Shown piece after piece: positions 6,095-45,344 of a stretch of 64,000 nucleotides of DNA. Every line of letters starts with the position of its first letter. Position 1 is the stretch's first letter. The notes beneath the pieces were generated by a model, which did not search any database, was not told the origin of the DNA, and saw nothing but the letters and a program-made list of their open reading frames with translations. The stretch is from the NCBI RefSeq assembly GCF_055900595.2, contig NZ_CM148325.1; one strand, 5' to 3'. Both the position numbers and the translations under genes were made by a program.

Positions 6095-6109
6095 TTTAAC
6101 ATTAATGCC

Positions 6110-6135
6110 AAAAACCGGGGAAACCCGGTTTTTTT
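6110..6135 (+). terminator. rho-independent terminator after trpS
   Basis: AAAAACCGGG-GAAA-CCCGGTTTTTTT stem-loop with T-run immediately after trpS stop. Confidence 0.8.
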
Positions 6136-6203
6136 ATCCTCATTTGCAATAATCCGAAAAAATGTGAAGCGCCTCGCCGTTTCCACATCTCACAGTTGCC
6201 ACT

Positions 6204-6225
6204 TATCTTCATTTTAATGAAGATA
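6204..6225. promoter_or_regulatory. perfect 10-bp inverted repeat (TATCTTCATT-tt-AATGAAGATA), candidate operator about 30 bp upstream of yhfZ
   Basis: Palindrome read directly from sequence in the AT-rich trpS-yhfZ intergenic region. Confidence 0.4.
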
Positions 6226-6253
6226 TAAACATTCATTTTATTGAAAATATATT

Positions 6254-7159
6254 ATGCGTCGAACGTTTATCAAAAAAGAAGGCGTCGTCATCACGACACT
6301 GGCCCGTTATTTGTTGGGTGAAAAATGCGGTAATCGACTGAAAACCATAGATGAACTGGCAACTGAATGCCATTCATCCGTTGGCCTGACGCAGGCCGCG
6401 TTGAAAACGCTGGAATCAAGCGGTGCGATACGAATTGAACGCCGCGGGCGCAATGGCAGTTATCTGGTGGAAATGGATAACAAAGCACTGCTGAGTCATG
6501 TGGATATCAACAACGTTGTGTGTGCCATGCCCTTGCCCTATACCCGCTTGTACGAAGGTTTAGCGAGTGGACTGAAAGCTCAGTTTGATGGCATTCCTTT
6601 TTATTATGCGCACATGCGCGGTGCGGATATTCGCGTGGAGTGTTTGCTTAACGGTGTCTATGACATGGCGGTGGTTTCCCGACTGGCGGCAGAAAGTTAT
6701 CTCACGCAAAAAGGCTTATGCCTCGCGCTGGAGTTGGGGCCGCATACCTACGTTGGCGAGCACCAGTTGATTTGCCGTAAAGGCGAGTCCGCAAACGTGA
6801 AACGCGTGGGGCTGGATAACCGTTCGGCGGATCAGAAAATCATGACCGATGTCTTTTTTGGCAGTAGCGATGTAGAACGTGTCGATCTCTCTTATCACGA
6901 GAGTTTACAACGCATTGTTAAAGGCGATGTCGATGCGGTGATCTGGAACGTGGTAGCGGAGAGCGAACTGGCCATGCTGGGATTAGAAGCGATGCCACTG
7001 ACGAACGATCTGCGATTTTTACAGGCTACTGAAGCCGTGATACTAACGCGTGCCGATGATTACCCAATGCAACAACTGCTGCGTGCAGTGGTTGATAAAC
7101 AGGCCCTGCTTGCCCATCAACAACGAGTGGTGAGTGGGGAACAGGAACCCAGTTATTAA
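6254..7159 (+). CDS. yhfZ: putative transcriptional regulator of the yhf cluster (N-terminal HTH-like region plus ligand-binding-like domain)
   Basis: 301-aa ORF, first gene of eight co-directional ORFs; recognised as YhfZ by length and position. Confidence 0.75.
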   Translation: MRRTFIKKEGVVITTLARYLLGEKCGNRLKTIDELATECHSSVGLTQAALKTLESSGAIRIERRGRNGSYLVEMDNKALLSHVDINNVVCAMPLPYTRLYEGLASGLKAQFDGIPFYYAHMRGADIRVECLLNGVYDMAVVSRLAAESYLTQKGLCLALELGPHTYVGEHQLICRKGESANVKRVGLDNRSADQKIMTDVFFGSSDVERVDLSYHESLQRIVKGDVDAVIWNVVAESELAMLGLEAMPLTNDLRFLQATEAVILTRADDYPMQQLLRAVVDKQALLAHQQRVVSGEQEPSY

Positions 7160-7175
7160 ATGAAAGGCATCTGAA

Positions 7176-7538
7176 ATGGAAACCAGACTCAACCTGCTTT
7201 GCGAGGCAGGCGTTATTGATAAGGACATCTGCAAAGGCATGATGCAGGTCGTCAAGGTACTGGAAACCGAATGCCATTTGCCAGTGCGCAGCGAGCAAGG
7301 AATGATGGCGATGACACATATGGCGAGCGCACTGATGCGCAGTCGCCGTGGTGAAGAAATAGAGCCGCTGGATAACGAATTGCTGGCAGAGCTGGCGCAA
7401 TCCAGCCACTGGTCAGCCATTTTACAATTGCATCAGGTGTTGTTGAAGGAATTCGCACTGGAAGTTAACCCGTGTGAAGAAGGCTATTTGCTGGCCAACC
7501 TTTATGGATTATGGATGGCTGCTAACGAAGAGGTTTGA
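7176..7538 (+). CDS. yhfY: small cytoplasmic protein of unknown function (YhfY family)
   Basis: 120-aa ORF 17 nt after yhfZ. Confidence 0.65.
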   Translation: METRLNLLCEAGVIDKDICKGMMQVVKVLETECHLPVRSEQGMMAMTHMASALMRSRRGEEIEPLDNELLAELAQSSHWSAILQLHQVLLKEFALEVNPCEEGYLLANLYGLWMAANEEV

Positions 7539-7621
7539 GGCTCCCGACAAATCCACGTCGCACAACCTAAATATTCAAAAAAATGAATATTTAATTCAAG
7601 GAACAGAAACGAGGCAACAAG

Positions 7622-8785
7622 ATGTTTGTAGAAGCATTGAAACGCCAGAACCCGGCACTGATTTCCGCCGCACTAAGATTGTGGCAACAGGGCAAGATCG
7701 CCCCGGACAGTTGGGTAATCGACGTGGATCAGATACTGGAAAACGGTAAGCGGCTGATTGAGACGGCGCGGCTTTACGGCATTGAACTGTATCTGATGAC
7801 CAAGCAGTTTGGTCGTAATCCGTGGCTGGCGGAAAAACTACTGGCATTGGGCTACAGCGGCATTGTGGCGGTGGATTACAAAGAGGCGCGAGTCATGCGC
7901 CGCGCCGGTTTGCCGGTGGCGCATCAGGGGCATCTGGTACAAATCCCTTGTCATCAGGTTTCTGACGCCGTTGAACAGGGCACCGACGTCATCACCGTGT
8001 TTACACTCGACAAAGCGCGGGAAGTTTCTGCCGCAGCGGTGACGGCCGGGCGGGTCCAGCCTGTGCTGCTCAAAGTTTATAGCGACGATGATTTTCTTTA
8101 TCCGGGGCAGGAGAGCGGTTTTGCACAGCATTCGCTGCATGAGGTGGTTGCTGAAATCCAGAAACTACCGGGGTTACATTTAGCCGGATTAACCCATTTC
8201 CCTTGCCTGCTATGGGATGAGGCTGCCGGGAAAGTTTTGCCAACACCGAACCTCCAGACGCTGGTCAATGCTCGTAACCAACTTCTGAAGTCTGGAGTTG
8301 TACTTGAGCAATTAAACGCGCCTTCAGCGACCAGCTGCACTTCGCTGCCATTACTGGCGGAATACGGTGTGACTCATGCCGAACCCGGCCATGCACTGAC
8401 GGGGACGATTCCGGCAAACCAGCAGGGCGACCAACCCGAACGTATCGCCATGCTTTGGCTGAGCGAAATTTCCCATCACTTCCGTGGCGACAGCTACTGC
8501 TACGGCGGCGGTTATTACCGTCGTGGTCACGCGCAACATGCGCTGGTGTTTACGCCAGAAAATCAAAAGATTACTGAAACCAATATCAAAACTGTGGATG
8601 ACAGCAGTATCGACTACACCCTGCCGCTGGCAGGCGAGTATCCGGTGAGCAGTGCAGTGGTGCTCTGTTTTCGCACGCAGATTTTTGTCACCCGTAGCGA
8701 TGTGGTGCTGGTGTCCGGTATTCACCGTGGCGAACCGGAAATCGTTGGTCGTTATGACAGTCTTGGAAGCTCTCTGGAGGCGTAA
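7622..8785 (+). CDS. yhfX: putative PLP-dependent enzyme (alanine-racemase-like fold), function unknown
   Basis: 387-aa ORF; stop overlaps yhfW start by 1 nt. Confidence 0.75.
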
Positions 8786-10011
8786 TGGCGCGATTTGTGG
8801 TGTTAGTGATTGATAGCTTTGGCGTAGGCGCAATGAAAGATGTCACGTTGGTGCGCCCACAGGATGCCGGGGCGAATACCTGTGGTCACATCCTGAGCCA
8901 ACTGCCGCATTTGCAGCTACCAACGCTGGAGAAGCTGGGGCTAATCAACGCATTAGGTTATGCGCCAGGCGATATGCAGCCGTCAGACTCCGCAACCTGG
9001 GGTGTGGCAGAGCTGCAACATGAAGGTGGCGATACCTTTATGGGGCATCAGGAAATTTTAGGCACGCGCCCGTTACCGCCGCTGCGGATGCCCTTTCGCG
9101 ATGTGATTGACCGTGTTGAACAGGCATTAGTCACCGCTGGCTGGCGGGTTGAGCGCCGTGGCGAAGAGTTGCAATTTCTGTGGGTTAATCAGTCGGTTGC
9201 CATTGGCGATAACCTCGAGGCGGATTTAGGCCAGGTCTATAACATCACCGCCAATCTCTCTGCGATCTCTTTTGACGACGCAATCAAAATTGGTCGTATC
9301 GTGCGTGAGCAGGTACAGGCCGGTCGGGTCATTACATTTGGCGGCCTGTTAACTGACAGTCAGCGCATTCTCGATGCCGCAGAAAGCAAAGAAGGGCGCT
9401 TTATTGGCATCAATGCGCCGCGTTCTGGCGCTTATGACAATGGCTTCCAGGTCGTACATATGGGCTACGGCGTCGATGAAAAAGTGCAGGTGCCGCACCA
9501 ACTGCATCAAGTGGGCGTGCCCACGGTGCTGGTGGGTAAGGTGGCAGATATTGTCAGCAATCCTTATGGCGTGAGCTGGCAAAACCTGGTGGATAGCCAG
9601 CGGATTATGGATGTCACCCTCGACGAATTTAACACGCATCCGACGGCGTTTATTTGCACCAATATCCAGGAAACCGACCTCGCTGGTCACGCAGAAGACG
9701 TCGCACGTTATGCTGAACGTTTGCAGGTCGTTGACCGTAACCTTGTCCGGCTTGTTGAGGCGATGCAGCCAGATGATTGCCTGGTCGTGATGGCGGATCA
9801 CGGTAACGATCCGACCATTGGTCACAGCCACCATACCCGTGAAGTAGTGCCAGTGCTGGTTTATCAGCAAGGGCTGGTCCACACGCAACTCGGTGTGCGC
9901 ACCACGCTTTCTGATGTGGGGGCTACCGTGTGTGAATTTTTCCGTGCGCCACCGCCACAAAATGGTCGCTCTTTTCTTTCCTCCCTCCGGTTTGCAGGAG
10001 ACACCCTATGA
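8785..10011 (+). CDS. yhfW: phosphopentomutase-like metalloenzyme, function unknown
   Basis: 408-aa ORF; N-terminus [11 protein letters not shown] resembles the DeoB metal-binding DSxGxG motif; overlaps php by 4 nt. Confidence 0.75.
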
Positions 10012-10886
10012 GTTTTGATCCGACGGGCTTCACCCTCGCCCATGAGCATCTGCATATTGATCTCTCCGGCTTTAAAAACAACGTGGACTGCCGCCTTGAT
10101 CAGTATGCGTTCATTTGCCAGGAGATGAACGACCTGATGGCACAGGGTGTGCGTAATGTGATTGAGATGACCAACCGTTACATGGGGCGCAATGCACAAT
10201 TTATGCTCGATGTAATGCACGAGACGGGGATCAACGTGGTGGCCTGCACCGGTTATTACCAGGACGCGTTTTTCCCGCAACATGTGGCGACCCGCAGCGT
10301 GCAGGAACTGGCGCAGGAGATGGTCGATGAAATTGAACAGGGTATCGATGGCACGGAGCTGAAAGCCGGGATCATCGCGGAGATTGGCTCCAGCGAAGGA
10401 AAGATTACGCCGCTGGAAGAGAAAGTTTTTATTGCCGCCGCGCTGGCACATAACCAGACCGGACGCTCGATCTCCACGCATACGTCGTTCAGCACGATGG
10501 GGCTGGAGCAATTGGCTCTGTTGCAAGCCCACGGAGTTGATCTTTCGCGCGTCACCGTTGGTCACTGCGATCTGAAAGACAACCTCGACAACATTTTGAA
10601 GATGATCGATCTCGGCGCGTATGTGCAGTTCGACACCATCGGCAAGAACAGTTACTACCCGGACGAAAAGCGCATTGCGATGCTCCACGCGCTACGTGAC
10701 CGTGGGTTGCTGAACCGCGTCATGCTGTCGATGGATATTACGCGCCGCTCTCATTTAAAAGCCAACGGTGGTTATGGCTATGACTATTTATTAACCACCT
10801 TTATTCCGCAATTGCGCCAGTCAGGATTCAGTCAGGCCGATGTGGATGTGATGTTACGTGAAACTCCCTCTCAATTTTTCCAATAA
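10008..10886 (+). CDS. php: phosphotriesterase-homology protein (amidohydrolase superfamily, binuclear metal hydrolase)
   Basis: 292-aa ORF with N-terminal HxH metal motif ([12 protein letters not shown]). Confidence 0.85.
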
Positions 10887-10896
10887 GGACAGACTC

Positions 10897-11250
10897 ATGA
10901 AAAAGATTGGTGTTGCAGGCTTACAGCGTGAGCAGATTAAAAAAACCATTGAAGCGACGGCTCCTGGCTGTTTTGAAGTTTTCATTCATAACGACATGGA
11001 AGCGGCGATGAAGGTGAAATCCGGGCAACTGGATTACTACATCGGCGCGTGTAATACCGGGGCGGGCGCGGCATTGTCGATTGCCATCGCGGTGATTGGC
11101 TATAACAAAAGTTGCACTATTGCCAAGCCGGGCATTAAAGCGAAAGACGAGCATATCGCCAAAATGATCGCCGAAGGGAAAGTGGCGTTTGGGCTTTCCG
11201 TTGAGCATGTCGAACACGCGATTCCGATGCTGATTAACCATCTGAAATAA
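10897..11250 (+). CDS. yhfU: small protein of unknown function (YhfU family)
   Basis: 117-aa reading from ATG preceded by AAGGA; track ORF begins 39 nt further upstream inside php. Confidence 0.65.
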   Translation: MKKIGVAGLQREQIKKTIEATAPGCFEVFIHNDMEAAMKVKSGQLDYYIGACNTGAGAALSIAIAVIGYNKSCTIAKPGIKAKDEHIAKMIAEGKVAFGLSVEHVEHAIPMLINHLK

Positions 11251-11261
11251 AAGGCACGACT

Positions 11262-12566
11262 ATGGATCTGTATATTCAGATTATCGTGGTGGCGTGCCTG
11301 ACGGGTATGACATCGCTTCTGGCGCATCGCTCGGCAGCCGTTTTTCATGACGGTATCCGCCCGATCCTGCCGCAACTGATTGAAGGCTATATGAACCGTC
11401 GTGAGGCGGGGAGTATCGCTTTTGGTCTGAGCATTGGTTTTGTGGCCTCGGTGGGGATCTCTTTTACCCTGAAAACCGGGTTGCTCAACGCATGGTTACT
11501 CTTTCTTCCTACCGATATCCTCGGTGTCCTGGCGATAAACAGCCTGATGGCGTTTGGCCTTGGTGCACTCTGGGGCGTACTGATCCTCACCTGCCTGCTG
11601 CCGGTAAACCAGCTGCTGACCGCGCTACCGGTGGATGTATTAGGTAGTCTGGGGGAATTAAGCTCGCCAGTGGTTTCAGCTTTTGCACTGTTCCCGTTGG
11701 TGGCGATTTTCTACCAGTTTGGCTGGAAGCAAAGTCTGATCGCCGCCGTGGTAGTGTTGATGACCCGTGTGGTGGTAGTGCGCTATTTCCCGCATCTCAA
11801 TCCGGAATCCATCGAAATCTTTATTGGCATGGTGATGCTGCTGGGGATCGCGATAACTCACGACCTGCGTCATCGTGATGAAAATGACATCGATGCCAGC
11901 GGTATGTCGGTGTTTGAAGAACGTACGTCGAGGATTATCAAAAATTTACCCTATATCGCCATCGTAGGGGCGCTGATTGCCGCCGTTGCCAGCATGAAGA
12001 TTTTTGCTGGTAGTGAAGTGTCGATCTTCACCCTGGAGAAAGCATATTCCGCAGGTGTAACGCCGGAACAATCACAAACGCTGATCAACCAGGCGGCGCT
12101 GGCGGAATTTATGCGCGGGCTGGGTTTTGTGCCGTTGATTGCCACCACCGCGTTAGCAACAGGTGTGTATGCAGTTGCGGGCTTTACCTTTGTTTATGCG
12201 GTGGGCTATCTCTCGCCGAATCCGATGATTGCAGCGGTATTAGGCGCAGTGGTTATTTCGGCGGAAGTCCTGTTACTTCGTTCGATCGGCAAATGGCTGG
12301 GACGCTATCCATCGGTACGTAACGCGTCGGATAACATCCGTAACGCCATGAATATGCTGATGGAAGTGGCGTTGCTGGTCGGTTCGATTTTCGCAGCAAT
12401 TAAAATGGCGGGCTATACCGGATTCTCCATCGCGGTTGCCATTTACTTCCTCAACGAATCCCTGGGCCGTCCGGTACAGAAAATGGCGGCACCGGTCGTA
12501 GCAGTAATGATCACTGGCATCCTGCTGAATGTTCTTTACTGGCTTGGTCTGTTCGTTCCGGCTTAA
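11262..12566 (+). CDS. yhfT: polytopic inner-membrane protein, putative transporter (YhfT family)
   Basis: 434-aa ORF, multiple hydrophobic segments. Confidence 0.75.
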   Translation: MDLYIQIIVVACLTGMTSLLAHRSAAVFHDGIRPILPQLIEGYMNRREAGSIAFGLSIGFVASVGISFTLKTGLLNAWLLFLPTDILGVLAINSLMAFGLGALWGVLILTCLLPVNQLLTALPVDVLGSLGELSSPVVSAFALFPLVAIFYQFGWKQSLIAAVVVLMTRVVVVRYFPHLNPESIEIFIGMVMLLGIAITHDLRHRDENDIDASGMSVFEERTSRIIKNLPYIAIVGALIAAVASMKIFAGSEVSIFTLEKAYSAGVTPEQSQTLINQAALAEFMRGLGFVPLIATTALATGVYAVAGFTFVYAVGYLSPNPMIAAVLGAVVISAEVLLLRSIGKWLGRYPSVRNASDNIRNAMNMLMEVALLVGSIFAAIKMAGYTGFSIAVAIYFLNESLGRPVQKMAAPVVAVMITGILLNVLYWLGLFVPA

Positions 12567-12577
12567 AGAAGGCACCT

Positions 12578-13663
12578 ATGAAGACGTTTCCTTTGCAAAG
12601 CCTGACGCTTATTGAAGCGCAGCAAAAGCAGTTTGCGTTGGTGGATACGATTTGCCGCCATTTTCCCGGCGCGGAGTTTCTTACCCGCGGGGATTCAGGC
12701 TTAACGCCGGGCCTGAATCAACCGCGCATTACTCAGCGTGTGGAGCAGGTGCTGGCTGATGCGTTTCATGCGCCAGCGGCGGCGCTGGTGCAGGGCGCGG
12801 GTACTGGAGCAATTCGCGTCGGGCTGGCAGCTTTGCTCAAATCGGGGCAGCGTCTTCTGGTGCATGACGCGCCTGTTTACCCGACGACTCAGGTCATTAT
12901 TGAACAGATGGGGCTGACGCTTATTACTGCTGATTTTAATGACCTGTCGGCACTGAAGCAGGTCGTCGACGAGCAACAACCAGATGCCGCGCTGGTGCAG
13001 CATACGCGCCAGCAGCCGCAGGACAGCTATGTACTGGCAGATGTGCTGGCAACGCTGCGCGCAGCAGGTGTTCCAGCCTTAACCGATGACAACTATGCGG
13101 TGATGAAGGTGGCGCGCATTGGCTGTGAATGCGGGGCGAATGTCTCGACATTTTCCTGCTTCAAGCTGTTTGGGCCAGAGGGTGTTGGCGCGGTGGTAGG
13201 CGATGCTGATGTTATTAACCGGATCCGCGCCACGCTCTATTCCGGAGGCAGTCAGATCCAGGGCGCACAGGCGCTGGAAGTATTGCGTGGTCTGGTGTTT
13301 GCGCCAGTGATGCACGCGGTGCAGGCGGGGGTATCTGAACGGTTGCTGGCCTTGCTCAACGGTGGCGCGGTGGCGGAAGTTAAAAGCGCCGTTATTGCTA
13401 ATGCGCAGTCGAAGGTGTTGATTGTCGAGTTTCATCAGCCGATTGCCGCCAGAGTGCTGGAAGAGGCGCAAAAGCGCGGTGCCTTGCCTTACCCGGTGGG
13501 TGCAGAGTCGAAATATGAAATCCCGCCGCTCTTTTATCGACTTTCCGGAACGTTTCGTCAGGCGAATCCGCAATTAGAACATTGTGCAATTCGCATTAAC
13601 CCGAATCGCAGCGGTGATGAGACGGTATTGCGGATTTTGCGCGAGAGTATTGCCAGCGTTTAA
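12578..13663 (+). CDS. yhfS: putative PLP-dependent enzyme (fold type I-like), function unknown
   Basis: 361-aa ORF; candidate PLP lysine in SCFKLFG; last gene of cluster. Confidence 0.75.
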   Translation: MKTFPLQSLTLIEAQQKQFALVDTICRHFPGAEFLTRGDSGLTPGLNQPRITQRVEQVLADAFHAPAAALVQGAGTGAIRVGLAALLKSGQRLLVHDAPVYPTTQVIIEQMGLTLITADFNDLSALKQVVDEQQPDAALVQHTRQQPQDSYVLADVLATLRAAGVPALTDDNYAVMKVARIGCECGANVSTFSCFKLFGPEGVGAVVGDADVINRIRATLYSGGSQIQGAQALEVLRGLVFAPVMHAVQAGVSERLLALLNGGAVAEVKSAVIANAQSKVLIVEFHQPIAARVLEEAQKRGALPYPVGAESKYEIPPLFYRLSGTFRQANPQLEHCAIRINPNRSGDETVLRILRESIASV

Positions 13664-13767
13664 TTCTGGGAACGATGTTTTCGCAGAGTATGGAGAAAAA
13701 TACGCCCTCGGAAAATTCAGAGGGCGTTAGCTCATTAAACCGGCGTTAGCCGATTTCTGTCAGAGAC

Positions 13768-13935
13768 TTACTGTGCAGTAGGACCGCAACCGCCAATGAT
13801 TTTAGAAATAGAAATTGCCGGGTGCAGCAGGTAGTCGTAAGAGCAGTTCTTATCACGGTTTTCAATATGACCAGTACATGCAGTTAACGTAGCCAGTACT
13901 GCACCTACCAGTGCAACTTTAATAAATTTGTTCAT
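13768..13935 (-). CDS. yhfL: small lipoprotein (55 aa; signal peptide plus lipobox LTAC)
   Basis: Hand-translated minus-strand ORF MNKFIKVALVGAVLATLTACTGHIENRDKNCSYDYLLHPAISISKIIGGCGPTAQ; absent from ORF track because under 60 aa. Confidence 0.7.
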   Translation of the reverse strand: MNKFIKVALVGAVLATLTACTGHIENRDKNCSYDYLLHPAISISKIIGGCGPTAQ

Positions 13936-14129
13936 TTACATTCCCTATGTATTATATATTGATTAATATTCATTGATTATATGAATATAAGCGGACTGCT
14001 CATAAAGAACGATACAGGAATATTTAATTGGCGTCAGTGAGTGAATGACTTAATTTTGTAAGTCGCTGTAACGGTGAATATAATCCATTAGCAAATGATA
14101 TTTATTAAGAGGGTATGCTTTATTTGCTG

Positions 14130-14173
14130 AATATATAAAAAGAGTGATAAAGAGGGCCAGAATTATCTGGCCC
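14130..14173 (-). terminator. stem-loop downstream of cysG (possible terminator of nirBDC-cysG)
   Basis: GGGCCAG-ataatt-CTGGCCC hairpin 9 nt past the cysG stop, followed by a T-rich stretch on the minus strand. Confidence 0.45.
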
Positions 14174-14181
14174 GGGTAAAA

Positions 14182-15555
14182 TTAATGGTTAGAGAACCAG
14201 TTCAATTTATCGCGCAGGCCAACGACCCGACCAATAATAATTAATGAGGGACTGTTCATTTGCTGCGCCAGCTCGCCCAGTTGCGTGAGCGTACCGTCAA
14301 TCACGCGTTGCGTTACCGCCGTACCGTTTTCGACAATCGCCACCGGCATTTCGCAAGGCATTCCGTGTTCAATCAGTTTTTGCTGAATGGTCGCGGCCTG
14401 ATTAAGCCCCATATAGAACACCAGCGTCTGTTTTTCGGCTGCCAGGTTTTCCCAGTCCAGCTCGCCACCGGTTTTTAAGTGTCCGGTAATTAAGCGTACG
14501 CTCTGAGCATAATCGCGATGCGTGAGCGGAATGCCCGAATAGGCAGAGCAACCAGAAGCTGCGGTAATACCTGGAACCACCGAGAACGGAATGCCTGCAT
14601 TGCACAGTGTTTCCAGCTCTTCGCCACCACGGCCAAAAATAAACGGATCGCCGCCTTTCAGCCGCACCACGCGTTTGCCTTTTTGCGCTTCCCGCAGCAG
14701 GATCTGGTTAATCTCTTCCTGCGGTACGCAGTGATACCCCGCGCGTTTACCGACGAAGACACGATCCGCATCGCGGCGTACCAGATTCATAATATCGTCA
14801 GAAACCAGACGGTCGTAGACCACCACATCTGCCTGCTGAATTTGTTGCAGTCCTTTTAGTGTCAGCAGACCGGCATCGCCCGGACCTGCGCCAACCAGCA
14901 CCACTTCACCGCGATGATCGAGCGGTTCATTGATTAACTGTTCGGTCGTTTCGGTAATGGCTTTCTGATCGTTGTTCGCCAGCGACTGCGCCAGGCGATC
15001 ATTAACGAACAGTTTTTCCCAGAAACGGCGACGTTCACCCATCGTGGCGAACTGTTGTTTGACCCGACCGCGTAACTGCCCTGCATATTTTGCCACCTGG
15101 CCGAGATGCAGCGGCAGCAGTGATTCAAGTTTTTCGCGTAACAGTCGCGCCAGGACCGGAGAGGTACCGCCAGAGGAGACCGCGACCATGAGCGGTGAGC
15201 GGTCGATAATCGACGGCATAATAAAGCTGGCGGCTTTCGGCGCATCGACCACGTTACAGAAGATACGACGAGATTCGGCGGCTTCGCTGACGCGCTGATT
15301 AAGCGCGTCATCATCCGTCGCCGCAATTGCCAGCCAGCAGGTGTCGAGAAGGCTTTCATCAAATGGCCCTTCGACGAGGGTTAACATGCCTGCATCTGCC
15401 CATGCGGTGAACTGTGGAATAAACGCTAATGCATTCACCGTTAAGCGAGCACCTGCGTCTAACAGCAACCTTGCTTTGCGTTCCGCGACATCACCACCGC
15501 CGACAATCAAACAGTCGCGGTCGCGTAATTGGCAAAATATAGGCAAATGATCCAC
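14182..15555 (-). CDS. cysG: siroheme synthase (uroporphyrinogen-III methyltransferase / precorrin-2 dehydrogenase / ferrochelatase)
   Basis: 457-aa ORF with N-terminal NAD-binding GGGDVA motif and C-terminal methylase domain; follows nirC. Confidence 0.95.
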
Positions 15556-15573
15556 GTAAAAACCCCTTAATAA

Positions 15574-16380
15574 TTAACCGGCAGCCGTTTCAGTTTGATT
15601 AAATTTGTCCGCAACCGGACGATTAGCTTTCGGCGTAGCATACCAATAACCCAATCCCATGAATACGGCACCCGATAAAGTATTACCCAGCGTCACCCAC
15701 AGCAGGTTATGACCAATACCCGCCAGCGTGTAGGCTTCGCTGTGGTTGCCGAACCATGAGAGCGCGAACAGCGTCATGTTAGCGATGGAGTGCTCGTAAC
15801 CGGACGCAATAAACGCCAGCAGACACCACCAGATTGCGATAAATTTCGCCGCGCCTTCAGTACGCAGTGCCATCCAGATTGCCAGACAAACCAGCCAGTT
15901 ACACAATGCGCCTTTGAAGAACAGTACCATTGCCGGTGCAGTGGTCTTTGCCAGCGCGACGGAGTGAACAATACTGGTATCTACTGGCAAAAGGCTACCA
16001 CCGCCCCAGCTATAAAGCATGGCAACAAAGACGGAACCGACCAGGTTACCCAGCCAGGTTTGCGGCAGGATTGCCCACATTTGCCCGTGGCTAATGGTGC
16101 CCGCTTTCACCCCAAAGGTGAGGAACATGGTGTGTCCAGTGAACAGTTCAGAACCGGCGATAATCACCAGCGTTAAGGCGATACCAAAGGTCGCGCCCAT
16201 CACCAGAGGACGAACAGATGGATCGAGCAGGTTACCGAGCGTGAAAATCAGGATGATCCCCAGCCCCACATACGCGCCCGCCATCGCGGAGCTTACCCAG
16301 AAGCCGAGCGGGTTATTTGCCGACAGGCGTGCAATGCGCGCAGCGTTAGCCGCACACTTATTAATAGTGTCTGTAAACAT
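15574..16380 (-). CDS. nirC: nitrite transporter (formate/nitrite transporter family)
   Basis: 268-aa hydrophobic ORF; operon position after nirD. Confidence 0.9.
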   Translation of the reverse strand: MFTDTINKCAANAARIARLSANNPLGFWVSSAMAGAYVGLGIILIFTLGNLLDPSVRPLVMGATFGIALTLVIIAGSELFTGHTMFLTFGVKAGTISHGQMWAILPQTWLGNLVGSVFVAMLYSWGGGSLLPVDTSIVHSVALAKTTAPAMVLFFKGALCNWLVCLAIWMALRTEGAAKFIAIWWCLLAFIASGYEHSIANMTLFALSWFGNHSEAYTLAGIGHNLLWVTLGNTLSGAVFMGLGYWYATPKANRPVADKFNQTETAAG

Positions 16381-16506
16381 TTGATTATCCTTTAAAAAAT
16401 AAAAACAAAAAATAAAACAAAAAGTTTAAAAAATGTCCTGCAATATACTTAAGGTCATTACAGGACAATGCAAAAAGGGGAGGCATTGCGCCTCCCGTTA
16501 AAACAA

Positions 16507-16833
16507 TTAACCGCGTAGCTGTACCACGCCGTCTTTCACTCGTGCCTCGTAATGCTTGACGGAAAACTGTTCATCTTCCATGCATAAACCGTCGCTTAAG
16601 CGAAAACGCTGTTTTTTCAGCGGACTGGCGACCCACAGCTCGCCCTGGTGTTCCGCAATCAGCCCGCGTGACAGCACGCTGGATTCGAAGAACGGATCGA
16701 TGTTGCTGATCGCAAACACCTGGTCGCTGTGATACGGGCGGAAAATCGCTACCTGCTCGTCACCTAACAGCGCGCAGACGCCGGTTTCAGGCAGGATGTC
16801 ATCAATTTTGCAGATGTCTTTCCACTGGCTCAT
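16507..16833 (-). CDS. nirD: nitrite reductase (NADH) small subunit
   Basis: 108-aa ORF overlapping nirB stop by 4 nt. Confidence 0.9.
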   Translation of the reverse strand: MSQWKDICKIDDILPETGVCALLGDEQVAIFRPYHSDQVFAISNIDPFFESSVLSRGLIAEHQGELWVASPLKKQRFRLSDGLCMEDEQFSVKHYEARVKDGVVQLRG

Positions 16834-19373
16834 GCGTTGTCCTCCACCAGAGTTACCGGGATACGTTCATACGGCGTTGCCGGACGGTGCTGTTCGCGCT
16901 CTGGCACCATCTGCACGTTCGGGTCACGCTTATCGCTGTTGATGAAGTGTTTGAAGCGAGTCTGCGCAGACGGCGTATTGACCGTTTCAGTCCACTCACA
17001 CACTACCGCTTCACGCAGGCGCGCCATCTCTTCTTCCAGATGTGCGTTCAGCCCCAGCTTGTCGTCAATGATCACCGCTTTCAGGTAATCAATGCCGCCT
17101 TCGAGGTTTTCTAACCACGGTGCGGTACGCGTCAGTTTGTCGGCAGTACGGATGTAGAACATCATGAAGCGGTCAAGATATTTGATCAGCGTTTCGCGAT
17201 CGATATCCGCTGCCAGCAGATCCGCATGACGCGGTTTCATGCCGCCGTTACCGCACACATACAGGTTCCAGCCTTTTTCAGTGGCGATAATACCCACATC
17301 TTTACCCTGAGCTTCTGAACATTCACGGGTACAGCCGGAGACACCGAACTTCATTTTGTGCGGCGTACGGATGCCTTTGTAGCGGTTTTCCAGTTCCACG
17401 CCGAGGCCGACGCTGTCGCCAACGCCGTAGCGGCACCAGGTGCTACCCACGCAGGTTTTCGCCATACGCAGTGCTTTCGCATACGCATGACCGGTTTCGA
17501 AACCTGCTTCAATCAGCTGACGCCAGATCTCCGGCAGATCGTCTTTCTGTGCGCCAAACATCGCCAGACGCTGGGAGCCGGTGATTTTGGTGTAGAGATT
17601 AAATTCACGCGCGATACGACCCACTGCCATCAGCCCTTCTGGGGTGATTTCACCACCCGGAGAACGCGGGATCACCGAGTAGGTGCCGTCTTTCTGGATG
17701 TTCGCGAGGAAGTTGTCGTTAGAATCCTGCAGCGGAGTATGTTCCGGCTTCAGAATGTATTCGTTCCAGCAGGAGGCCAGCAGCGAACCGACGGTCGGTT
17801 TACAAACCTCACAACCGTAGCCTTTACCGTGTTTCGCCAGCAGTTCTTCGAAGGTTTTAATGCCTTCAACGCGGATCAAATGGAACAGTTCCTGACGCGA
17901 ATAAGCAAAGTGTTCGCACAGGTTATTGTTAACTTCGATACCCTGTTTTGCCAGTTCCGCGTTCAGTACCTGAGTGACCAGCGGGATACAGCCACCGCAG
18001 CCAGTACCCGCTTTGGTTTCGGCTTTCAGCGCCGCAACGGTGTGGCAGCCTTTGTTGATGGCAGCAATCAGATCGCCTTTGGTGACGTCGAAGCAGGAGC
18101 AGATTTGCGCGCTGTCCGGCAGTTTATCAACACCGATAGACGGCTTGCCGCTACCTGAGTGCGCCGGCAGGATCAGGGAATCCGGGTTTTCCGGCAGTTC
18201 GATTGCATTCAGCACCAGTTGCAGCAGGTTACCGTAGTCGCTGGTATCACCCACCAGTACTGCACCGAGCAGGGTTTTGTTGTCTTCGCTGACAATCAGG
18301 CGTTTGTAGATCTCTTTACTTTCGTCGAGGTAAACGTAGCTACGTGCGCCAGGCGTGCGACCGTGAGCATCACCAATACCGCCTACGTCTACGCCCAGCA
18401 GTTTCAGCTTGGCGCTAAGGTCAGCACCTTCAAAGGCGTTTTCGCTACCGAGAATATGGTCAACGGCGACCTGCGCCATTTTGTAGCCAGGTGCTACCAG
18501 ACCAAATACACGGTTGTTCCAGCTTGCGCATTCACCGATGGCGTAGATATCTGGATCGGAAGTCTGGCAGGAATCATTTATGACGATACCCCCACGCGGA
18601 GCAACGTCCAGACCACACTGGGTTGCCAGCTTATCGCGCGGACGGATACCGGTAGAGAAGACGATAAAGTCGACTTCCAGTTCGCTGCCGTCGGCAAAAC
18701 GCATGGTTTTACGCGCTTCGACACCTTCCTGCACAATCTCAAGAGTGTTTTTGCTGGTGTGAACGCGTACACCCATGCTTTCGATTTTGCGACGCAATTG
18801 CTCGCCGCCCATCTGATCAAGCTGTTCCGCCATCAGCATAGGGGCAAATTCGATAACGTGGGTTTCAATGCCTAAGTTTTTCAGCGCGCCAGCGGCTTCC
18901 AGACCTAACAGGCCGCCGCCAACAACGGCACCGCGCTTACTGCGACGGGCGCAGGATTCAATGGCGTTGAGGTCTTCAATGGTGCGATAGACAAAGCAGT
19001 CCTGAGTATCAGAACCTTTGATTGGCGGGATCCACGGATAGGAACCGGTCGCCATGATCAGCTTGTCATAAAAAACGGTACGTCCGGCGCTGGAGTGAAT
19101 CACCTTCTCCTGACGGTTGATGGTGATAGCGCGTTCGCCGACCAGAACTTTGATACCGTGTTTCTCGTAGAAGCCTTCGCGCACCAGCGACAGCTCTTCG
19201 GCGGTGTGGTGAGAGAAGTAAGACGAGAGGTGTACGCGGTCATAAGCGATGCGCGGTTCTTCACAGAAAACGGTAATATCAAAGTTGGCCGCATCAGATT
19301 TATCAAGAAGATCTTCGATAAAGCGATGGCCGACCATACCGTTACCGATAATTGCGAGTCTGACTTTGCTCAT
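16830..19373 (-). CDS. nirB: nitrite reductase (NADH) large subunit
   Basis: 847-aa ORF with N-terminal FAD/NAD-binding GxGxxG (IIGNGMVG). Confidence 0.95.
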   Translation of the reverse strand: MSKVRLAIIGNGMVGHRFIEDLLDKSDAANFDITVFCEEPRIAYDRVHLSSYFSHHTAEELSLVREGFYEKHGIKVLVGERAITINRQEKVIHSSAGRTVFYDKLIMATGSYPWIPPIKGSDTQDCFVYRTIEDLNAIESCARRSKRGAVVGGGLLGLEAAGALKNLGIETHVIEFAPMLMAEQLDQMGGEQLRRKIESMGVRVHTSKNTLEIVQEGVEARKTMRFADGSELEVDFIVFSTGIRPRDKLATQCGLDVAPRGGIVINDSCQTSDPDIYAIGECASWNNRVFGLVAPGYKMAQVAVDHILGSENAFEGADLSAKLKLLGVDVGGIGDAHGRTPGARSYVYLDESKEIYKRLIVSEDNKTLLGAVLVGDTSDYGNLLQLVLNAIELPENPDSLILPAHSGSGKPSIGVDKLPDSAQICSCFDVTKGDLIAAINKGCHTVAALKAETKAGTGCGGCIPLVTQVLNAELAKQGIEVNNNLCEHFAYSRQELFHLIRVEGIKTFEELLAKHGKGYGCEVCKPTVGSLLASCWNEYILKPEHTPLQDSNDNFLANIQKDGTYSVIPRSPGGEITPEGLMAVGRIAREFNLYTKITGSQRLAMFGAQKDDLPEIWRQLIEAGFETGHAYAKALRMAKTCVGSTWCRYGVGDSVGLGVELENRYKGIRTPHKMKFGVSGCTRECSEAQGKDVGIIATEKGWNLYVCGNGGMKPRHADLLAADIDRETLIKYLDRFMMFYIRTADKLTRTAPWLENLEGGIDYLKAVIIDDKLGLNAHLEEEMARLREAVVCEWTETVNTPSAQTRFKHFINSDKRDPNVQMVPEREQHRPATPYERIPVTLVEDNA

Positions 19374-43264: not shown

Positions 43265-43288
43265 TTACACGTTAATTAGTTTCGAATT

Positions 43289-43314
43289 AAAAAGGGCGCT
43301 TCGGCGCCCTTTTT
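43289..43314 (+). terminator. rho-independent terminator after tufA
   Basis: AAAAAGGGCGC-ttcg-GCGCCCTTTTT. Confidence 0.85.
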
Positions 43315-43391
43315 GCTGCCCGTAATTTGAGCTCGAAATATTTAGTCGTAATTTCACTCGCTGAACTATGGCGCAAATTAAACTGTGCTAT

Positions 43392-43413
43392 TGTAATCAT
43401 AACCATTCTCATT
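43392..43413 (+). promoter_or_regulatory. putative Fur-box-like element upstream of bfd
   Basis: TGTAATCATAACCATTCTCATT, AT-rich hexamer repeats resembling GATAATGATAATCATTATC, 33 nt before the bfd start. Confidence 0.35.
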
Positions 43414-43446
43414 TACACTTTGCGCAGAATTTGAACGGGAGCAATC

Positions 43447-43641
43447 ATGTACGTTTGTTTGTGTAATGGTGTAAGTGACAAAAAAATTCGCCAGGCAGTC
43501 CGTCAGTTTCATCCGCAATCTTTCCAACAATTGCGTAAGTTTATTCCTGTGGGAAATCAATGCGGTAAGTGCATTCGCGCCGCGCGCGAAGTGATGCAGG
43601 ACGAGTTGATGCAGATGCCAGAATTTAAAGAGATTGCCTGA
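43447..43641 (+). CDS. bfd: bacterioferritin-associated ferredoxin
   Basis: 64-aa ORF with [2Fe-2S] cysteines (CLCNGVSD ... NQCGKC). Confidence 0.85.
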   Translation: MYVCLCNGVSDKKIRQAVRQFHPQSFQQLRKFIPVGNQCGKCIRAAREVMQDELMQMPEFKEIA

Positions 43642-43713
43642 AGCCCACGCTTATTTTTTGACATCCCGCTAGCCCCATCTACGCTCTAATAGTGGAAGCG
43701 GAGGGACTATAAA

Positions 43714-44190
43714 ATGAAAGGTGATGTTAAAATCATAAATTATCTCAATAAACTATTGGGAAATGAGCTTGTCGCAATCAATCAGTATTTTCTCCATGCC
43801 CGGATGTTTAAAAACTGGGGCCTGATGCGTCTCAATGACGTCGAATACCATGAATCTATTGATGAGATGAAACACGCTGATAAATATATCGAGCGTATTT
43901 TGTTTTTAGAAGGAATCCCTAACTTACAGGATTTAGGCAAACTGGGGATTGGTGAAGATGTCGAGGAGATGCTGCAATCCGACCTGCGATTAGAACTGGA
44001 AGGCGCGAAGGATCTCCGTGAGGCTATCGCGTATGCCGACAGCGTTCATGACTATGTTAGCCGTGATATGATGATCGAGATCCTTGCCGATGAAGAAGGT
44101 CATATTGACTGGCTCGAAACTGAGCTGGATCTCATCGGTAAAATCGGTTTACAAAATTACCTGCAATCACAAATAAAAGTTAAAGATTAA
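43714..44190 (+). CDS. bfr: bacterioferritin
   Basis: 158-aa ORF, N-term [31 protein letters not shown]. Confidence 0.95.
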
Positions 44191-44654
44191 CGGCCTGCCA
44201 GCAAACTATCCCAGCCTACAACGAAACCCGCAGCCGCCAGAAATGGCCCAAACGGCAGCGGGTTTTTTAATGACTCTTTTCCTCTCATGAGCAGACCAAT
44301 AACTACGGCTCCGCAAGCGAATGAGGCAGCAAGGAAAACCAGTCGTGGCAAGAAGGTCCATGTATGCCAGGCACCAAGGGCGGCGAGAAACTTCACATCA
44401 CCATAGCCTAATCCTTCTTTATGACGCAGTATGCGATACCCCCAGTAAATGACAGCGAATGTGCCGTAACCAATAATCGCCCCCCATAACGCATCGGCTA
44501 AACCGTCAGGATTACAAACCTGATAGAACAAAAGACCTGACCAGAGTAACGGGCACGTAAATCTGTCAGGTAACAAGCCATGCTTTGCATCCCAGAAAAA
44601 AAGTAGGGCTGATAAACAAGCGTACAAAATCAGAAAGGGAAGGGTAGCGTCCAT
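44187..44654 (-). CDS. short-form prepilin (leader) peptidase, A24 family, HopD-like
   Basis: 155-aa polytopic ORF with [14 protein letters not shown] (GxGD catalytic aspartate motif); stop codon shares 3 nt with the bfr stop. Confidence 0.7.
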
Positions 44655-44827
44655 AAAACATCCTCTGTAATTGGAGTATCACCATCGAATAACTGCGGAT
44701 GCTCAGCAACAGAGAAATCGCTGATTTGTTAACCTGATTCCGGTGAAAAACGCTATCTTCACAACCTTACAAATTTCGTGGAATGCAGCTCGCAATCTGC
44801 GCGTTGCGATTAATTTCTACCCGATGC

Positions 44828-44855
44828 TTGCGTCAGGCTCAGATTTGCGTATAAT
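44828..44855 (+). promoter_or_regulatory. S10 operon promoter (-35 TTGCGT, 16-nt spacer, -10 TATAAT)
   Basis: Hexamers about 180 nt upstream of rpsJ, consistent with the known long S10 leader. Confidence 0.7.
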
Positions 44856-44861
44856 GCGCGG

Positions 44862-45344
<483 letters not shown>

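Follow-up and report, generated by a model that had tools for sequence, protein, structure and literature searches.

The operon frlABCDR of E. coli K-12 serves the utilisation of fructoselysine and psicoselysine (Wiame et al. 2002; Wiame & Van Schaftingen 2004, as cited in PMC5996543 and PMC3505186). An earlier note on the DNA analysed here, a stretch of 64 kb that we refer to as the window, placed this operon between yhfS and yhfL in K-12 and pointed out that the two genes adjoin each other in the window, which it read as an empty site of ancestral origin or, alternatively, as the result of a clean deletion. The locus raises the question whether the operon was removed from the lineage of the window or added to that of K-12.

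In the window yhfS (plus strand, 12578-13663; a 361-aa ORF with its TAA stop at 13661-13663) and yhfL (minus strand, 13768-13935; stop at 13768-13770) converge on a spacer of 104 bp at 13664-13767, the length and position of which were confirmed from the sequence and the ORF list. This spacer represents the unoccupied site of the 5.2-kb frlRDCBA cluster found in frl-positive E. coli. The name yhfS is the one given in the 99.9% identical genome Z0117EC0005, a RefSeq genome that is 99.7-99.9% identical over the stretch and carries the same gene names in its annotation. yhfS is the terminal gene of the yhfZYXW-php-yhfUTS cluster and encodes a PLP-dependent aminotransferase-fold enzyme, the NCBIfam matches of its protein to PLP enzymes being weak only. 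The 55-aa product of yhfL belongs to the YhfL family of small proteins (RefSeq WP_001031834.1). Beyond yhfL the minus strand carries cysG, which encodes the siroheme synthase (14182-15555; NCBIfam NF007922, E = 1e-189) and served as synteny anchor, followed by nirC, nirD and nirB. No transposase, repeat or credible ORF was detected in the spacer, in agreement with the earlier description, the only reading frames overlapping it being chance ORFs of 24-48 aa, and a search against Rfam gave no match at E <= 1. As a separate observation, yhfW (8785-10011) forms an intact ORF of 408 codons in the window and is annotated as a pseudogene with an internal stop in Z0117EC0005.

The gene order of the K-12 derivative MC4100, in which frlR, frlD, frlC, frlB and frlA sit between yhfS and yhfL, showed that the position given for K-12 is correct. 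K-12 and the window have the chromosomal site, yhfS, yhfL and the terminator hairpin of yhfL in common, whereas an additional 5.2 kb consisting of the five genes, the frlA promoter region and repeats on the frlR side occurs in K-12 and is entirely missing from the window. Two repeats were distinguished on the frlR side, of which the G+C-rich one is taken to be boxC-like and the other, a perfect inverted repeat of 13 bp, is presumably a REP element. When the K-12 frl region and the Frl proteins were searched for in the 64-kb window using blastn and tblastn, the only match was a segment of 78 nt (13690-13767), which corresponds to the DNA beside yhfL shared by K-12 and the window, terminator included.

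Alignment of the junction indicated that the K-12 insert of approximately 5.2 kb replaces about 15-20 bp of the spacer. On the yhfS side the homology to K-12 stops about 6 nt beyond the yhfS stop codon, at approximately 13669, and on the yhfL side it resumes at 13690 according to blastn, about 15-20 nt ahead of the hairpin; the alignment suggests that a weaker homology extends a few bases further. The approximate insertion point of frl, to which no strand is assigned, is therefore given as 13670-13689, a segment that aligns with the spacers of the outgroups described below and not with K-12 or O157. Comparison of the junction with both frl-positive and frl-negative genomes thus revealed that the window has kept some 15-20 bp which frl-positive strains lack.

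We also searched for traces of a mobile element at this insertion point. The segment 13670-13689 has no significant counterpart further inside the K-12 flank (p = 0.12-0.8 in shuffle tests). Local alignment of the presumed ancestral spacer with both K-12 flanks yielded a 6-nt ATTTAA and an 8-nt ATATTTTT on the frlA side, neither of them significant when compared with shuffled sequences (p = 0.12-0.8). Direct repeats at the frl boundaries, which the earlier note had proposed to look for, or a target-site duplication could not be recognised in K-12 either, the repeat search giving short chance families only. Neither an insertion sequence nor an integrase was found in the K-12 frl region, and none of its five annotated genes is a mobility gene. 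Its G+C content of 52-58% is similar to that of the flanks, and no composition signature of a foreign origin was apparent. The interpretation of frl as a mobile element or genomic island was thus not supported, in view of the lack of significant flanking repeats, of a mobility gene and of an atypical G+C content. The ordinary G+C content and the absence of repeats, insertion sequence and integrase were also counted against an insertion model as such.

A hairpin with an 8-bp stem had been noticed in the spacer, and it does exist there, with its arms ACGCCCTC at 13702-13709 and GAGGGCGT at 13720-13727 enclosing a loop of 10 nt in which two further inner pairs are possible. Read on the minus strand it takes the form ACGCCCUC-loop-GAGGGCGU followed by AUUUUUCU (13701-13694), starting 40 nt past the yhfL stop. 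Based on fold prediction, the segment 13694-13727 is a probable intrinsic terminator of yhfL on the minus strand. It resembles Rho-independent terminators located between convergent genes in its G+C-rich stem of 8-11 bp, its short loop and a U-run 40-73 nt past the yhfL stop. It differs from them in that only one strand, that of yhfL, offers a good U-run; on the yhfS strand the hairpin precedes UAGCUCAU, a poor U-run, so that it is probably not an efficient terminator in both directions. The automatic terminator scan missed this hairpin, since its loop exceeds the 8-nt limit of the scan, and reported two unrelated sites.

The hairpin is found beside yhfL, between yhfL and frlA, in K-12 and O157 as well and is hence no peculiarity of the empty site. 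In eight Escherichia sequences its eight outer pairs are essentially invariant (with one G-U wobble) and its inner pairs covary, one of them appearing as G-C, A-U and U-A. In this small sample 95% of the cells of the stem are paired, both partners have changed in two of 11 pairs, and no shuffle reached the covariation score. Citrobacter and Enterobacter carry a different hairpin with T-runs in the same place. A second conserved hairpin on the minus strand (AAAUCGGC/GCCGGUUU, 13737-13756) lies 11 nt past the yhfL stop; the eight Escherichia sequences likewise have 95% of its cells paired, with compensatory changes at two of the pairs.

The proximity of the first hairpin to the frl boundary (about 20 bp), together with the lack of any other mobility signature in the frl cassette, could alternatively point to a scar or recombination site of cassette mobility, such as an attachment-type inverted repeat, instead of a terminator. 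We regard this as hardly credible. Frl-positive strains have a single copy on the yhfL side and none at the opposite frl boundary, and the hairpin also occurs in species where frl is never seen at this locus. Moreover, the stem covaries, the U-run is placed as in a standard terminator, on the strand of yhfL, and the replacement of the hairpin by another one with T-runs in Citrobacter and Enterobacter is what would be expected of terminator turnover. Judging from its structure and conservation, it is most likely the intrinsic terminator of yhfL, conserved in the genus.

The lineage of the window was determined by comparison with 5,426 complete E. coli genomes. Over most genes of the 64 kb compared, K-12 and a B2 strain each show approximately 96-97% identity to the window. 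Using a neutral 6-kb segment, 18 of the 5,426 genomes were at least 98.2% identical to it and the rest at most 97.0%. Strains EC42405 and 2013C-4282, which are among these 18 nearest genomes, have been described as members of cryptic clade I (Okuno et al. 2023, PMC10100065), which that paper places beside E. coli sensu stricto as its sister at the level of a subspecies. Because the window clusters with these two strains, it is assigned to Escherichia cryptic clade I, and over the 64 kb it groups with known clade I strains and is about equidistant from K-12 and B2. It is not a B2 sequence, its junction differing from that of B2 by approximately 8-9%. The yhfS-yhfL junction is contiguous in all 18 genomes of the lineage.

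The presence of frl elsewhere in the genome would have spoken against the reading of the earlier note. We used a composite query made up of the window's 5-kb locus and 250 nt of K-12 frlB. In each of the eight nearest complete genomes, which are 99.9% identical to the window at the locus, this query hit one place per chromosome and matched with its locus part only, and the 250-nt frlB probe found no match on these chromosomes at megablast sensitivity. Accordingly, frl was detected neither in the eight relatives nor in the 64-kb window, the absence outside the window being deduced from the nearest relatives and the frlB probe. Across the collection the composite query matched a separate second place in only about 20 of 5,425 genomes, so that frl is practically always situated at this locus; it is present at a median of one place per genome and never on a plasmid.

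As the 64 kb are all of the genome that could be inspected, the missing operon might conceivably be an artefact of assembly or sampling, with frl collapsed out of the assembly or located outside the window. This is extremely improbable given that eight independently sequenced complete genomes share the 104-bp spacer with 99.9% identity across the junction, that their chromosomes gave no match to frlB, and that frl occurs on no plasmid of the collection and away from the locus in at most about 20 of 5,425 genomes.

The direction of the change was inferred from related species. A scan with the YhfS protein of one genome per GTDB species provided 80 loci, which were screened with the Frl, YhfL, CysG and NirC proteins, and frl was found in just one of them, that of an E. 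coli strain. In E. albertii, E. whittamii, Escherichia sp. MOD1-EC7003 and SCPM-O-B-8794, yhfS is followed by yhfL after a gap of approximately 100-110 bp and without frl; in E. whittamii and SCPM-O-B-8794, the two loci that reach far enough, cysG comes after yhfL. In about 23 loci of Citrobacter, Enterobacter, Klebsiella, Buttiauxella, Cedecea and Pluralibacter, yhfS is the immediate neighbour of yhfL and/or cysG, and frl was not encountered within 10 kb. The spacer of the window is homologous over its full length to the spacers of the four non-coli Escherichia, including the 15-20 bp or so that are absent from K-12 and O157. A deletion of frl could not have recreated these outgroup-like bases, and a simple deletion can therefore not be the source of the junction; only replacement by the empty allele of another strain could have restored them.

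Taking furthermore into account that the empty site is found in clade I, in the other Escherichia and in B2-type strains, the simplest explanation is a gain of frl inside E. coli proper. We consider it highly probable (roughly 0.88) that the junction of the window is the ancestral empty site and that frl was later inserted in the lineage of K-12. From the two possibilities initially proposed, the ancestral site is thus favoured by the empty outgroup loci and the shared spacer bases, and the same evidence speaks against the clean deletion. Likewise, to call frl absent is true with respect to K-12, but the evidence indicates an addition in the K-12 lineage and not a removal here.

A secondary loss would require frlABCDR to have been present between yhfS and yhfL in the ancestor of the window's lineage and to have disappeared by a precise deletion or, more plausibly, by homologous recombination with an empty allele, which would leave no scar. 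Recombination is frequent in E. coli, the existence of at least three states of the locus implies repeated rearrangement, and frl is located beside trpS in a distant genome of the Enterobacterales. An exchange might also be hinted at by yhfL of the window, which is 100% identical to that of K-12 while the flanking genes are 5-7% divergent. However, yhfL is near-invariant in all E. coli lineages compared (0-4 differences), and its identity to the K-12 gene is hence weak evidence of exchange. The yhfS and cysG alleles are lineage-specific, being at most 94.5% identical to those of 5,409 other genomes, and show no sign of a recent import. Since moreover the four non-coli Escherichia are empty without exception, as are the loci from Citrobacter to Pluralibacter and the 18 genomes of the window's own lineage, and since the outgroup-like bases make a simple deletion impossible, a secondary loss seems improbable.

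Under the favoured reading of an ancestral empty site, the yhf operon and yhfL would converge in the window on a short spacer with two conserved hairpins from which nothing has been deleted. The 5.2-kb frl cassette would have been inserted just past the yhfS stop, approximately 20 bp before the yhfL terminator, thereby replacing some 15-20 bp. The insertion presumably took place on a branch inside E. coli proper, and the cassette would have been inherited at that spot since. Gene order, the homology of the outgroup spacers, the conservation of the hairpins, the genome counts and the lack of an frlB match in the nearest genomes were observed directly; terminator activity, a single gain of frl, the branch on which it occurred and the growth phenotype discussed below are what we infer.

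In the set of 5,426 complete E. coli genomes, a contiguous yhfS-yhfL junction without frl was found in approximately 2,105 (about 39%; 2,108 when the 5-kb query was used) and the frl operon in 3,300. Three states of the locus coexist, namely the yhf cluster only, the yhf cluster together with frl as in K-12 (a derived count of approximately 2,940 genomes) and frl only without the yhf cluster as in O157 (a derived count of approximately 350-375 of the 5,426). The junction is therefore indeed the variable spot that the earlier note had suspected. The distribution of these states over the phylogroups is based on the literature and a few named strains.

In E. coli O157:H7 H2495 and in strain KV7, frlR comes immediately after trpS, all eight genes of the yhfZ-yhfS cluster being absent (locus positions 2370-2501). 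The resulting arrangement trpS-frlRDCBA-yhfL resembles the window in its yhfL side and terminator hairpin and reverses it in its content, frl being there and the entire yhfZ-yhfS cluster gone. In the O157:H7 strain frlD was observed to contain an internal stop.

The origin of the frl cassette was approached via its homologues. Outside E. coli the closest FrlB proteins were those of Serratia sp. (84%) and Sodalis sp. C49 (83%), followed by proteins of at most 79%, mostly from Firmicutes. FrlB of Citrobacter, Salmonella or Klebsiella did not appear among the named matches, which are a minority of all matches. This patchy distribution fits an acquisition. A search for a recent donor was unsuccessful: with 83-84% for the best FrlB outside E. 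coli and approximately 72% identity for the DNA of the operon, no donor could be named. The Frl proteins of E. coli are 60-84% identical to those of Serratia and Sodalis, a range close to that of the flanking core proteins (56-85%).

The frl operon of Serratia is located at an unrelated locus. Sodalis sp. C49 possesses a complete frlABCDR (locus positions 6603-12604) convergent with trpS-gph-rpe-dam-damX-aroB, an adjacency as in O157-type E. coli, so that frl may, with a small probability, have a longer history in this part of the chromosome. Together with the three segregating contents of the locus and the deep yhf alleles, this adjacency might be taken to mean that the trpS-cysG interval is an old spot of cassette exchange in Enterobacterales, where long-term balancing selection or repeated introgression maintains alternative catabolic cassettes and frl does not go back to one neutral gain. 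We consider this unlikely.

The polymorphism in presence and absence of frl is already known and the feature as such is an ordinary one. The fructoselysine transporter and the frl operon were reported to be absent from B2 strains, for which no growth on fructoselysine or psicoselysine was predicted (Fang et al. 2018, PMC5996543), and the absence of frl has been called a hallmark of B2 (bioRxiv 10.1101/2025.09.14.675865). The window shares with this B2 genotype the lack of the whole frl operon including the transporter, and the B2 strain UPEC_U013 exhibits the same arrangement of yhfS, spacer and yhfL with a homologous spacer and hairpin. It differs from the B2 genotype in belonging to cryptic clade I and in that synteny marks the absence as the original state. 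The paper on the regulation of frl (bioRxiv 10.1101/2020.01.13.904318) contains no word on yhfL or on the distribution of frl.

The additions made here are modest and consist of the exact insertion site, the direction of the change and the state of clade I. With K-12 as the derived form and the “absent operon” as the original condition, they guard against a misreading centred on K-12. A gain instead of a loss is also a small correction to the discussion of the absence of frl in B2, on which one of the papers concerned speculates about “dispensing” with enzymes (PMC5996543; bioRxiv 10.1101/2025.09.14.675865). As the frl genes appear to be missing altogether from strains with the empty site, neither fructoselysine nor psicoselysine is expected to support their growth; based on gene content and published metabolic models, the clade I strain, like B2, is thus expected to be unable to use either compound. 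These substrates are dietary Amadori products which were found to be under selection during mouse-gut evolution of frl-positive E. coli (bioRxiv 10.64898/2026.05.27.728231).

Several observations concern the neighbourhood of the junction and other parts of the window. The yhf cluster from yhfZ to yhfS (approximately 6100-13663) is unusually divergent within E. coli. The identity of yhfS amounts to 92.6% between the window and K-12 and to 91.3% between K-12 and B2 (8.7% divergence), and that of yhfX to approximately 92%, compared with approximately 97.4-97.9% for cysG, nirC and nirB between K-12 and B2 (2.3-2.6% divergence for cysG and nirB). This divergence suggests old alleles or introgression.

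The adjacent yhfL displays 0-4 nt differences in most E. coli lineages and 100% identity between the window, as a member of clade I, and K-12, the value for the GTDB representative E69 being 95.2%, and its flanks differ at 4-10 positions per 100 nt. Such conservation could be due to constraint or to a recombination sweep.

A second block of K-12 genes missing from the window was noticed at 43266-45033, where tuf is immediately followed by bfd, bfr, a prepilin-peptidase remnant of 468 nt and rpsJ. In K-12 and/or the B2 strain, chiA and the gsp type II secretion genes are located between tuf and rpsJ; they are absent from the window and from Z0117EC0005. Finally, Superficieibacter electus (locus positions 11236-18701) and Citrobacter koseri (locus positions 11331-17703) carry approximately 6-7 kb between yhfL and cysG, suggesting a further site of insertion on the far side of yhfL.
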